A stretch of 64,000 nt of DNA from Eledone cirrhosa (Eukaryota), in the NCBI GenBank assembly GCA_964016885.1, contig OZ024756.1, positions 7,750,001 to 7,814,000 on the forward strand, in the 5' to 3' direction. The notes beneath the pieces were generated by a model. It saw nothing but the letters and a program-made list of their open reading frames with translations. It ran no database searches and was not told the DNA's origin. The position numbers were made by a program, and so were the translations under genes. This document shows positions 5,736-45,090 of this stretch, in pieces (within the stretch, counting starts at the first letter, position 1; every line of letters begins with the position of its first letter).

Positions 5736-6370
5736 CTAAATTGGGATAATACTTAAGTATATCCTAATGTTTGTTGAGTGAGATGGAATTGGTCGGAGTA
5801 TCGTTTAAGGCTTTCTCTGTTTATGTATTGTATATATATATATATATATATATATATATACAATACATGTATTGTATATATATATATATATATATATATA
5901 TATATATATATATATATACAATACATGTATTGTATATATATATATATATATATATATATATATACAATACATGAACAGAGAAAGCCTTAAACGATACTCC
6001 GACCAATTCCATCTCACTCAACAAAAATTAGGATATACTTAAGTATTATCCCAATTTAGAGTTTGGGGTGCTAACTAATCAGTATTTCTTTGAAAATTGG
6101 TTGTATTATTTTATATGAGACATTATTAAGTAAATATCTCTTTCCTTCCAGACGGCCGTTTCGTTATAAGATTTCTACAAATTGGGATAAATAATGTCCA
6201 GGTTATGTAGAAACTTGTATATAATCCGTAGTTTCATACACAAGCGGCCTTTTATAAGCTCATCAGTGGATGCCCAAATTAATATCGATATACGAATTAT
6301 ATTGACATCAATATAATGGTGATGGTTTCCCTCAGCGCTAAGAAGAGACCGGTAGATTAAAATCCAGCAT
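5736..6370 (-). mobile_element. pLTR-like fragment with degenerate HHR (6224-6271, minus) and inverted terminal arm
   Basis: Arms 5736-5831 and 5963-6059 are reverse complements around (TA)n; minus strand reads atcca-CTGATGA-stem-GAAA-cTA-cggat. Confidence 0.6.
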
Positions 6371-6421
6371 ATATATATATATTAACAAAAGTTCTCCTCT
6401 GTATGTTGTTTGTCTCATTAA

Positions 6422-6506
6422 TAACGGTTTCTCATATAGGCACAACGCCAGCAATATTGGGGGAGGGGAAAGTCGATTAAATCGACCCTAGTACATTACT
6501 GGTACC
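6422..6506 (-). mobile_element. SINE 3' fragment
   Basis: Matches the 3' part of the 4659 copy. Confidence 0.75.
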
Positions 6507-6974
6507 AGATTAGAGCAAACATCACAAGCGCTCTATCTCAAAATTATTTTTGAAAAGCATTAGAAATGCACAACCGGTAAAGACTTAAAACTAAAACTGA
6601 ATACTAACCAGTACTTATTACTAATTTATACTTATTCCTAACTAAACTATTTTTCACTGGGAAAAATGTCAGCATTTTCTTTTCCTTTTACTAATATATC
6701 ACAACTCGTGTGTTACACCTCTAGTTTTTATATATATATATATATATATATATATATATATATATATATATATATATATATATATATATATATATATATA
6801 TATATAAATATTATAAAGAAAACGAAAAATCAGTGATGCATCTGGACTTAGTTTATTCCGTGTTACAAATCTTTCGCCGGCATGTAGCTCTAGTCATGGT
6901 GCTTGTATGGATCTGGCTGATTCTGAAATAGAATCACCCAGATCCATACAAGGACCATATATATATATATATAT

Positions 6975-7412
6975 ATATTTATTTAAAGGTTAAACAATGT
7001 TCATTGAATAAATCAAAGAATTAGTTTTACAATAGATTGGAAGCACTCAAGAGTGATGGTTTTCCAGAGTTATTTATATTAATTCAAAATATTAACAAAA
7101 ATAGACATTCGTGTGATCAATTATATTTTATTATACATATTTCAGAGGTACTGAGCTATCTTCAAGGGTACGTCCTCATCAGATAAAATAACATTATGCA
7201 TGACATACCCTGACTTAGTAGATGGTTAAGATTCAGTCATGGTAGTATGACTGAATCTTAACCATCTACTAAGTCAGGGTATGTCATGCATAATGTTATT
7301 TTATCTGATGAGAACGTACCCTTGAAGATAGCTCTGTACCTCTGAAATATGTATAATAAAATATACTTGATCACACGAATCTCTATTTTTGTTAATATTT
7401 TGAATTAATATA
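6975..7412. mobile_element. Fold-back pLTR palindrome with outward-facing HHRs
   Basis: Arms 7076-7240 and 7247-7412 around a 6-nt loop GGTAGT; TA-flanked; HHR motif in each arm. Confidence 0.85.
7298..7362 (+). ncRNA. Minimal type I hammerhead ribozyme (mirror copy 7125-7189, minus)
   Basis: attttat-CTGATGA-stem II-GAAA-tatgta-TA-ataaaat; stem I is 7 bp. Confidence 0.75.
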
Positions 7413-40822: not shown

Positions 40823-41188
40823 TATATATATATATATATATATACTATATATATATATATATATATACTACATATATATAGTATATATATATATATATAT
40901 ATATACTATATATATATATATATATATACTATATATATATAATATATATATATATATATATATATATATATACTATATATATATATATATAGTATATATA
41001 TATATATATATATATATATAGTATATATATATATATATATATATATATATATATATATATATATATATATATATATATATACTATATATATATATATATA
41101 TATATATATACTATATATATATATATATATATATATATATATATATATATATATATATATATATATATATATATATATATATATATAT

Positions 41189-42632
41189 TGAGTGTAATGA
41201 ATTCTTTTACAATGGAATTAGCTCAAAAGGAAATATTCCTGAGCCGTGTATAAAAGTAATATATATGAGTAATATATATGATGAAACAGATACCAACACA
41301 TCTGTATTTATATTGCAAAAGAAAATTAGCCAGAATGAAGAATATTAATTATTTTACCACAGTTCGTCCACATCGATTTAAAATAATAAATCGACAAAAA
41401 CTAGCTGCGCTGCCAAATGGCTATGATGTTTATACATATTTAAATTTCAAAATCAAACCTGTTCCGTAGATATGTTTAAACCTTAAAATCCAAACATGTT
41501 TCGAGATGAATAAGTGTATAAGTGTAGGAATATCATGCCACTGCTCTCCTCAGTAAACATCCAGAGACAATTGATAAGCTTCACTTCTAAATAATTTAAA
41601 AGACTGTGTGACGCACATGGGTTCACAGATTCAAGCTAGTCTCATAACCGTACTGCTAGAAATAACAGTCGTATATATGAGGCGAATTTCAGCTCAACCA
41701 GGAGCAGTTATATTAATTGTAATGAATTCTTTTACAATGGAATTAGCTCAAAAGGAAATATTCCTGAGCCGTGTATAAAAGTAATATATATGAGTAATAT
41801 ATATGATGAAACAGATACCAACACATCTGTATTTATATTGCAAAAGAAAATTAGCCAGAATGAAGAATATTAATTATTTTACCACAGTTCGTCCACATCG
41901 ATTTAAAATAATAAATCGACAAATGGCTATCATAGCCATTTGGCAGCGCAGCTAGTTTTTGTCGATTTATTATTTTAAATCGATGTGGACGAACTGTGGT
42001 AAAATAATTAATATTCTTCATTCTGGCTAATTTTCTTTTGCAATATAAATACAGATGTGTTGGTATCTGTTTCATCATATATATTACTCATATAGTATAT
42101 ATATATATACACGGCTCAGGAATATTTCCTTTTGAGCTAATTCCATTGTAAAAGAATTCATTACACTTAATATAACTGCTCCTGGTTGAGCTGAAATTCG
42201 CCTCATATATACGACTGTTATTTCTAGCAGTACGGTTATGAGACTAGCTTGAATCTGTGAACCCATGTGCGTCACACAGTCTTTTAAATTATTTAGAAGT
42301 GAAGCTTATCAATTGTCTCTGGATGTTTACTGAGGAGAGCAGTGGCATGATATTCCTACACTTATACACTTATTCATCTCGAAACATGTTTGGATTTTAA
42401 GGTTTAAACTTATCTACGGAACAGGTTTGATTTTGAAATTTAAATATGTATAAACATCATAGCCATTTGGCAGCGCAGCTAGTTTTTGTCGATTTATTAT
42501 TTTAAATCGATGTGGACGAACTGTGGTAACATAATTAATATTCTTCATTCTGGCTAATTTTCTTTTGCAATATAAATACAGATGTGTTGGTATCTGTTTC
42601 ATCATATATATTACTCATATATATTACTTTTA
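41189..42632. mobile_element. Palindrome A of a 525-bp HHR-bearing non-coding tandem unit (retrozyme-like)
   Basis: Unit period 41193 to 41718; centre near 41931; HHR CTGAGGA-gag..ctc-GAAA-catg-TT at 41488-41558 (minus) and 42325-42395 (plus). Confidence 0.8.
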
Positions 42633-43650
42633 TATATATATATATATATATATATATTTATATATACTATATATATATATAGTATATATATATATATATT
42701 TATATATACTATATATATATATAGTATATATATATATATATATATATATATATATATATATATATATATATATATATATATATATATATATACTATATAT
42801 ATATATATATATATACTATATATATATATATATATATATACTATATATATATATATATATATATATACTATATATATATATATATATATACTATATATAT
42901 ATATATATATATATACTATATATATATATATATATATATATACTATATATATATATATATATATACTATATATATATATATATATATATATATATATACT
43001 ATATATATATATATATATATATATACTATATATATATATATAGTATATATATATATATATATATATATACTATATATATATATATACTATATATATATAT
43101 ATAGTACATATATATATATATATATATATATATATATATTATATATATATATAGTATATATATATATATATATATATATATATATATATATATATATATA
43201 GTATATATATATATATATAGTATATATATATGTATATATATATATACTATATATATATATATACATATATACTATATATATATATATATATATATATATA
43301 CTATATATATATATATATATATATATACTATATATATATATAGTATATATATATATATATATATATATATATATATATACTATATATATATATATATATA
43401 TATACTATATATATATAGTATATATATATATATATATATATATACTATATATATATATATATATATACTATGTATATATAATATATATATATATATATAT
43501 ATATACTATATACATATATATAGTATATATATATATATATATATATATAGTATATATATATATATATATATATAGTGTATATATATATATATATATATAT
43601 ATATATATATATATATATATATATATATATATATATATATATATATATAT

Positions 43651-45090
43651 ATTAAGTGTAATGAATTCTTTTACAATGGTATTAGCTCAAAAGGAAATAT
43701 TCCTGAGCCGTGTATAAAAGTAATATATATGAGTAATATATATGATGAAACAGATACCAACACATCTGTATTTATATTGCAAAAGAAAATTAGCCAGAAT
43801 GAAGAATATTAATTATTTTACCACAGTTCGTCCACATCGATTTAAAATAATAAATCGAGAAAAACTAGCTGCGCTGCCAAATGGCTATGATGTTTATACA
43901 TATTTAAATTTCAAAATCAAACCTGTTCCGTAGATAAGTTTAAACCTTAAAATCCAAACATGTTTCGAGATGAATAAGTGTATAAGTGTAGGAATATCAT
44001 GCCACTGCTCTCCTCAGTAAACATCCAGAGACAATTGATAAGCTTCACTTCTAAATAATTTAAAAGACTGTGTGACGCACATGGGTTCACAGATTCAAGC
44101 TAGTCTCATAACCGTACTGCTAGAAATAACAGTCGTATATATGAGGCGAATTTCAGCTCAACCAGGAGCAGTTATATTAAGTGTAATGAATTCTTTTACA
44201 ATGGAATTAGCTCAAAAGGAAATATTCCTGAGCCGTGTATATATGAGTAATATATATGATGAAACAGATACCAACACATCTGTATTTATATTGCAAAAGA
44301 AAATTAGCCAGAATGAAGAATATTAATTATTTTACCACAGTTCGTCCACATCGATTTAAAATAATAAATCGACAAAAACTAGCTGCGCTGCCAAATGGCT
44401 ATGATAGCCATTTGTCGATTTATTATTTTAAATCGATTTGGACGAACTGTGGTAAAATAATTAATATTCTTCATTCTGGCTAATTTTCTTTTGCAATATA
44501 AATACAGATGTGTTGGTATCTGTTTCATCATATATATTACTCATATAGTATATATATATATACACGGCTCAGGAATATTTCCTTTTGAGCTAATTCCATT
44601 GTAAAAGAATTCATTACACTTAATATAGCTGCTCCTGGTTGAGCTGAAATTCGCCTCATATATACGACTGTTATTTCTAGCAGTACGGTTATGAGACTAG
44701 CTTGAATCTGTGAACCCATGTGCGTCACACAGTCTTTTAAATTATTTAGAAGTGAAGCTTATCAATTGTCTCTGGATGTTTACTGAGGAGAGCAGTGGCA
44801 TGATATTCCTACACTTATACACTTATTCATCTCGATCGAAACATGTTTGGATTTTAAGGTTTAAACTTATCTACGGAACAGGTTTGATTTTGAAATTTAA
44901 ATATGTATAAACATCATAGCCATTTGGCAGCGCAGCTAGTTTTTGTCGATTTATTATTTTAAATCGATGTGGACGAACTGTGGTAAAATAATTAATATTC
45001 TTCATTCTGGCTAATTTTCTTTTGCAATATAAATACAGATGTGTTGGTATCTGTTTCATCATATATATTACTCATATATATTACTTTTAT
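43651..45090. mobile_element. Palindrome B of the same 525-bp unit
   Basis: Period 43657 to 44182; centre near 44402; HHRs at 43952-44022 (minus) and 44778-44852 (plus). Confidence 0.8.

Follow-up and report, generated by a model that had tools for sequence, protein, structure and literature searches.

The window analyzed here is a 64-kb stretch of the Eledone cirrhosa genome (C17:7750001-7814000; genome size 3.0 Gb) that is rich in (TA)n and carries insertions of Penelope-like elements (PLEs). We established its geometry by self-alignment and reading of the sequence; all arm structures reported below were read from assembled sequence, and arm polarity was assigned from hammerhead ribozyme (HHR) core motifs and the direction of open reading frames (ORFs). 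A first-pass annotation had listed a series of loci at which two inverted arms point their 3′ ends outward into (TA)n. This geometry is present at eight of them; at 17327-17726, TA lies on one side only, and two of the listed loci derive from a single event. One-armed copies, which that annotation did not mention, are common: beside the example in Table 1, they occur at 51373-51592 and 55946-57031. Its claim of at least three families is borne out by Neptune-like elements (family A and its sister, C), Hydra-like elements (B1 and B2), and a non-autonomous HHR-motif family (D). In these three kinds of PLE, the two arms of one insertion end, near-strictly, at different fixed sites, one short and one tailed.

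Family A possesses a single ORF encoding reverse transcriptase (RT) followed by a GIY-YIG endonuclease (EN) at the C terminus, with one frameshift in the window copy. The ORF at 34164-36155 (minus strand) matches RVT_1 with E=2e-4, below the curated cut-off, and GIY-YIG with E=1e-4, above the cut-off; among named relatives of the protein, a hypothetical protein from Octopus vulgaris matches best (69% identity). The 4286-bp monomer has a pseudo-long terminal repeat (pLTR) and partial tandem organization, with the tail covering the ORF start. Its pLTR contains a minimal type I HHR motif, with core boxes and, in its predicted fold, stems I and II; such folds are predicted for A and B2 only. Minimal HHRs occur in pLTRs (PMC4209133). 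A hammerhead family was not found among the Rfam matches listed (150 of 199), whose top rows are microsatellite-driven microRNA noise.

Clade names were assigned on motifs rather than from a tree, the homologs retrieved for the family A protein including no reference from a named clade. In translation, A and C share RT and, preceding the C-terminal GIY-YIG, a C-X4-C-X2-C linker; they also have a Cys pair between VVY and YIG, and by these motifs they appear Neptune-like: the Neptune definition combines a CX2-5CxxC linker with two Cys residues in the GIY-YIG core, features common to Nematis (PMC8557442). B1 and B2 have a CNCRNKSNC-type linker and a YVGS/YIGA core without the internal Cys pair, and they appear Hydra-like, the Hydra clade being described by a CxCX5C linker, a C-terminal EN without CCHH, and (TA)n insertion (PMC8557442). 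Family D is non-coding and built of tandem units of 519-525 nt (~520), with HHR core boxes present; this core has a long stem II, and its fold is no better than that of shuffled sequences (z +0.95). An array of ~23 family D units by spacing, with 18 same-strand motif matches in register, lies at C4:230480543-230492230. It is headed by one short inverted arm, which fits a multimeric or circular RNA template.

Table 1. Insertions of PLEs and of an HHR-motif element in the window, grouped by family. S, short 3′ end; L, tailed 3′ end; min-HHR, minimal HHR
Feature	Position	Strand	Structure
Family A, long arm	33670-38148	-	5′-truncated upstream pLTR, ORF (frameshift near 36150), 3′ pLTR carrying a min-HHR motif; S at 33670, entering (TA)n
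Family A, head-to-head junction	38149-38181		33 nt of locally templated filler; short repeats of adjoining ORF sequence
Family A, second arm	38182-40821	+	3′ part of ORF; pLTR carrying min-HHR (40583); tail of 59 nt; L at 40821, entering (TA)n
Family A, mini insertion	27910-27954		S arm ~33 nt (minus), 2-nt microhomology, L arm ~14 nt (plus)
Family A, one-armed copy, L end	30226-31291	-	TA array on both sides; exception to the two-arm rule
Family C	7455-7907		Left arm minus with tail (L), right arm plus with S; TA on both sides
Family C	17327-17726		Left arm ending at S within TA; HHR motifs 17556 (-) and 17606 (+); no TA end on the interrupted right arm
Family B1	6979-7407		Left arm minus with ~97-nt tail (L), right arm plus with S; near-symmetric centre at ~7243
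Family B2	8180-11325		Left arm long, ending at S; right arm short, carrying min-HHR and ~85-nt tail (L); EN ORF remnants 10246-11082 (minus)
Family B2, older copy	32499-33300		Left arm L, right arm S
Family D	41189-42630		HHR core motifs at 41553 (-) and 42330 (+); left arm L, right arm S, 64-nt tail
Family D, tandem duplicate	43653-45087		Left arm L, right arm S; copy of the 41189-42630 event
Low-copy HHR-motif element	5736-6368		Copies 5736-5830 (+) and 5965-6368 (-) facing inward across a TA array

The largest insertion, at 33670-40821, has arms that differ by 2 substitutions and 3 gap events over 2.6 kb. The arms of the mini insertion at 27910-27954 do not overlap and hence form no inverted repeat. 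The first-pass annotation drew polarity from HHR or ORF evidence; the insertion at 7455-7907 contains no HHR, and its polarity follows from its similarity to the beginning of the family A ORF. The right arm of 17327-17726 breaks off at 17726 within unrelated hairpin sequence. The two family D inserts share the same junction and differ by 9 substitutions and 4 gaps in 1.44 kb; they are one event duplicated in tandem. At 5736, where the annotated series begins, a minus-strand HHR motif gives 5736-6059 the opposite geometry, with both 3′ ends inward across a TA array. The only other locus of this element, considered as an empty allele, was rejected as such and is a separate copy.

The 3′ ends of each PLE family fall at two fixed positions, a short one (S) and a tailed one (L), so that the earlier remark that the two 3′ ends are usually unequal in length understated the pattern. 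The offset of L from S is +59 nt in A, +64 in D, ~+90 in B2, and +97 in B1; in family A, S lies near ORF codon 8 and L near codon 28. Exact family A ends running into TA number 12,641 for S and 11,658 for L genome-wide. At both sites the element sequence continues in register with the TA target, and ATAT or TATA spans the end site in six of seven known continuations (A-S, A-L, D-S, D-L, B1-S, and, from a single copy, B1-L), compared with 1-6% of positions at which these 4-mers begin. The exception is B2-S, which matches the target by 2-5 nt depending on subfamily. No read-through copy was found for the B2 L site, which is therefore not among the continuation cases.

Orientation, on which the first-pass annotation had staked its proposal, is not random. 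The 26-nt family A motif has 25,602 exact copies genome-wide, and among its first 100 matches on contig C1 (0-21 Mb), neighbors point outward in 19/19 cases within 1 kb and 28/32 within 8 kb. For the two Hydra-like families, outward orientation holds for 24/29 B2 neighbors within 5 kb (25,822 copies) and 13/13 B1 neighbors within 8 kb in the 95 rows from C1. The exact pattern used for family C was too strict (2 matches), and no genome-wide total for this family is derived from it.

The arms of a pair differ in which end they carry. Within the lists of exact ends, 43 of 48 outward pairs lying within 8 kb combine S with L (p=7e-9 vs 0.5). Two S+S pairs and one of three L+L pairs from these lists proved on reading to be separate insertions (L214-L216). 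Reading 120 loci and the window for joined pairs, with part of the set chosen from the S and L end lists, yielded 76 pairs, comprising 74 S+L, 2 L+L, and 0 S+S, together with 74 unpaired ends, 13 of them from family C. In an unselected subset of 68 loci, chosen solely for presence of the motif and without regard to a partner, 36 of 37 pairs were S+L, the pairs falling in 34 loci. Tiny non-overlapping insertions (minis) follow the same rule genome-wide (567 S+L, 0 L+L). A pattern with the S motif on both sides (288 loci) cannot separate S from read-through into the tail and is thus not an S+S count; each of the 25 such loci that we read has a tail on exactly one side. By eye, S+L pairing was found in 7/7 B2, 4/5 B1, and 7/8 D pairs. 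Were the site chosen freely at each end, about half of pairs should be S+S or L+L. We saw 2 of 76, and the self-complementarity of (TA)n, to which the first-pass annotation had attributed priming from both ends of a break, is therefore not the whole explanation.

Secondary origin would offer another account of such pairs, whether by independent insertions into a single TA hotspot, by inverted duplication at a later time, or as assembly chimeras from fold-back of long reads. TA arrays are indeed hotspots with nested families, one insertion in the window has been duplicated, and 5736-6059 looks like a secondary hairpin. We nonetheless judge this origin very improbable for the pairs at large, assembly artefacts being excluded on indirect evidence: the two arms have no TA between them, all 19 close neighbors face outward, and the arms end at different fixed sites and differ in sequence by 0-12% (median 1.2%). 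In 15/16 cases, interruptions in the flanking TA read with the same strand polarity on both sides of the insertion, which favors one pre-existing TA array over mirrored flanks, and different families lie beyond the arrays on the two sides of 33670-40821. The 567 minis, moreover, contain no inverted repeat at all.

The reach of the arms bears on how they were copied. Across 72 independent S+L pairs (2 duplicates dropped), the S arm extends further 5′ in 36 and the L arm in 22, the two ending within 15 nt of one another in the remaining 14; in 12 of the 72, the L arm lies wholly inside the tail, and either arm can have zero length. These figures speak to fold-back, in which an antisense RNA or the first cDNA hairpins and the endonuclease later trims the arms at S and L. 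Published proposals for PLEs run along these lines, with inversions formed by self-priming, proposed on an antisense template for rotifer Penelopes (PMC3846280), and the tail by EN-mediated resolution (PMC8557442). Fold-back suits S and L being ATAT/TATA sites like the target, and it accounts for identical arms and for the 14/72 near-symmetric pairs, several of which have palindromic centres. If an L-primed cDNA folded back, however, the L arm would have to reach furthest, and an S-primed cDNA cannot provide the tail; at least half of the pairs, those in which S extends further, therefore call for two priming events or for trimming as an additional step. No sequence is common to the two arms in 12/72 pairs or in the 40 minis measured among the 567, 0-5 nt would have to suffice for closing loops of 1-3 kb, and purified PLE protein begins reverse transcription at both tail boundaries (PMC11167929). 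Fold-back of a single cDNA, raised as an alternative in the first-pass annotation, thus fails in at least half of these pairs, and as the general route we consider it unlikely.

Several further features bear on the template of the two arms of an insertion. Partner arms, at the median divergence given above, contrast with 6.1% for other arms, and the partner falls within the closest decile in 26/31 cases (in an initial pass, it was the nearest arm in 17/33). Their lengths correlate (Spearman 0.47, p=3e-5). Among 28 arms carrying an ATGGCG motif near their start, 21 have their 5′ end 3-21 nt upstream of it. At 14 loci, an arm ends in this zone, 235-280 nt upstream of S, and in none is the partner longer than 300 nt (0/14; 5.7 expected, p=0.0009), as would follow if the two primers shared a single S/L pair close to the RNA 5′ end. 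At clean mini junctions, 2-5 nt of microhomology is present in 29 of 30, a count drawn from 40 measured of the 567, vs 19% for random joins, although many of these junctions recur and the loci may not be fully independent; longer junctions are blunt, microhomologous, or contain locally templated filler.

Two further observations concern the arms themselves. Some are 5′-truncated within a few bases of the HHR core start (38148 and 17556 in the window; loci L035, L046, L209, and L214), which suggests a pause at the ribozyme. At locus L087 (C1:18408611-18418511), both arms of one insertion carry a divergent G-rich haplotype with many A-to-G differences; this could reflect an A-to-I hyper-edited RNA template, which would favor one RNA for both arms.

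On this evidence, we consider it fairly probable that two-armed S+L insertions form by twin priming at two fixed sites on one sense RNA, the two cDNAs being joined at their far ends. The GIY-YIG endonuclease would cut both strands of the (TA)n target, as another PLE does in vitro, and both ends of one break would prime reverse transcription on the same RNA. One RT would start at L and the other at S, probably as a dimer on that RNA, and the L-primed RT would displace the S cDNA on passing S. The 5′ ends just upstream of ATGGCG may represent run-off at the RNA 5′ end. The cDNAs would then likely be joined at their far ends, with microhomology-mediated joining allowing each to prime second-strand synthesis of the other. 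The geometry is that of twin priming, with two inverted fragments, use of both target ends, and an internal join. The internal deletion typical of L1, in which the fragments do not overlap, is confined to 12/72 pairs and the minis. The targets are (TA)n arrays, for which no empty allele was found. Of the origins put forward in the first-pass annotation, priming from both ends of a break fits best with the S+L pairing, the arm reach, and the haplotypes; that idea is largely right, though earlier publications foreshadow part of it.

Shared haplotype, coupled lengths, and the S+L rule favor one RNA, but dual priming, in which the break ends prime on two separate RNAs, gives an equal picture if these come from the same source locus, as they probably would, and if an asymmetric dimer imposes one start at S and one at L. 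The definition of dual priming comes from L1 (PMC2837659). This mode permits long overlaps without strand displacement, same-source RNAs account for shared haplotypes and shared length limits, and the two L+L pairs need two templates or re-priming. It requires an extra asymmetry to yield 74/76 S+L, however, and on an RNA with two pLTRs the choice between the 5′ and 3′ site pairs would be independent, yet long partners are absent from the 14 loci at which 5.7 were expected. We regard dual priming as rather unlikely.

A number of observations weigh against twin priming on one RNA. Kilobase overlaps would need strand displacement, a predicted step, and, as noted, an asymmetric dimer loaded with two RNAs of a single source locus would leave an identical pattern. 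We looked for a conserved stem-loop joining S and L and did not find one (z -1.7 to +0.1). A pair was detected in only 34 of the 68 unselected loci, which also hold 34 unpaired ends, 7 with TA directly 5′, and two true L+L pairs exist. Near-equal arms are more frequent than expected (14 pairs vs 3.5) and include hairpin-like centres that fit fold-back equally; such pairs may include true fold-backs. Five of 31 partner arms lie outside the closest decile, and gene conversion between arms could yield haplotype sharing. Flank polarity is kept in 6/10 minis, on low counts, and the 10 mini junctions excluded when microhomology was counted show inserted bases or mismatches. The anatomy sample comes mostly from the first 43 Mb of one contig. 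Finally, we place transcription start by the ATGGCG motif, which we take to resemble a YY1 site, rather than by RNA.

Much of the architecture described here has precedent. The first-pass annotation credited the literature with inverted 5′-truncated pLTRs, which are indeed known; the one-sided tail, TA targeting, and extension of both strands from two sites in vitro are also already published. EN-containing (EN+) PLEs of the Penelope/Poseidon, Neptune, Hydra, and Naiad groups (PMC8557442, Fig. 2; PMC3846280) share with the insertions reported here partial tandems, an inverted 5′-truncated copy at the 5′ end, a tail at one end, a pLTR and tail over the first ORF codons, and (TA)n targeting. The tails in those accounts measure 30-40 nt, often at one end, vs 59-97 nt here; in our set the one-tail rule is near-strict and counted (74/76), and non-overlapping minis occur. 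How the inverted copies arise is termed open (PMC8557442).

Closest in biochemistry is the Poseidon element PAc of Anolis, which in vitro cleaves and extends both strands from two adjacent RNA start sites bounding the tail and is a predicted dimer (PMC11167929). Common to PAc and the elements described here are two RT starts bounding a tail near the ORF start, use of both strands, an AT-rich target, and the predicted dimer. In PAc, however, start sites showed no difference between strands and lack homology to the target, whereas here the paired ends differ and both sites are ATAT/TATA; the text of that paper, as far as covered, does not tie two-site starts to inverted arms. Twin and dual priming have been described for L1 (PMC2837659). 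L1 twin priming likewise has the second target end priming internally, inverted fragments with 3′ ends outward, and some junction microhomology, but its second site is variable and accompanied by internal deletion, whereas here neither site varies, roughly half of the loci carry two arms, and overlap between these arms, forming inverted repeats, is usual. Family D resembles non-LTR (long terminal repeat) retrozymes, viewed as non-autonomous PLEs (bioRxiv 10.64898/2026.07.22.740005; PMC4209133), in being non-coding, with an HHR-motif monomer of ~520 nt and head-to-tail arrays; it differs in having an inverted arm and the S and L ends of the autonomous families, and its long stem II HHR core is without folding support.

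The literature searched here yielded no statement of the S+L pairing rule or of twin priming in PLEs, although older papers on Penelope structure, outside its reach, may anticipate them. The additions made here are the counted, near-strict one-short-one-tailed rule in three kinds of PLE and evidence that fold-back is not the main route. How tandem and inverted structures form, and why insertion is biased toward microsatellites, are left as open PLE questions (PMC8557442); the S+L rule, together with minis whose arms do not overlap and with the coupling of arm lengths, separates self-priming and EN trimming from two-ended priming. S and L also supply exact RNA sites and targets for in vitro work. 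If true, a retrotransposon that copies itself into both ends of a break and pairs with its target would represent a route of its own for making the second strand. In our judgment the evidence is evenly balanced on a broader proposal, that twin priming is the programmed integration route of EN+ PLEs: one ribonucleoprotein would offer two fixed ATAT-containing RNA sites to both 3′ ends of a double-strand break, the tail would be the spacing between primers, and inverted pLTRs, one-sided tails, minis, and retrozyme arrays would all come from one reaction, conserved in the Neptune-like, the Hydra-like, and the non-autonomous elements alike.

The view of PLEs as a systematic generator of palindromes in this genome is upheld at the DNA level. 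Arms overlap by >=100 nt in 41/72 pairs and by >=30 nt in 56/72, and rough extrapolation from C1 gives ~7,000 inverted pairs for family A and ~6,000 for B2. The process considered here would account for PLE-made inverted repeats on the order of ten thousand by that extrapolation, with consequences for assembly, for the annotation of repeats, and possibly for RNA editing. Because the arms face outward, the dsRNA also proposed in the first-pass annotation would arise as hairpin RNA only where host transcription reads through the entire insertion.

Other repeats surround these insertions in the window. Next to the youngest PLE inserts lie TA arrays of kilobase length, degenerate and interrupted periodically by C or G (28493-30217, 31291-32488, 40822-41188, 42631-43652, and 45088-45716); slippage, unequal exchange, and reiterative copying are candidates for their expansion. 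GIY-YIG remnants of other PLE families lie between TA arrays at 26209-27201 and 55946-57254, each beside a 156-bp element (27046-27201 and 57091-57246). Another repeat family has (TA)n on both sides (5501-5707, 13165-13467, and 45720-45757), and short TA-bounded segments with HHR-like core motifs occur at 12604-12813, 16652-16801 (with inverted ends), and 55655-55836. A decayed non-LTR retrotransposon, unrelated to PLEs, occupies 891-3600 (RVT_1 E=3.5e-15, weak zf-RVT), and an abundant repeat resembling a short interspersed element is present as many fragments in both orientations (4648-5085, 6414-6505, 12153-12330, 49337-50433, and 54567-54735). Satellites span 20302-25135 (4.8 kb, 12-bp unit) and 60914-62664 (1.75 kb, 39-bp unit), and at 51752-54253 a minisatellite with a 39-43-bp unit switches orientation several times, producing nested palindromes.

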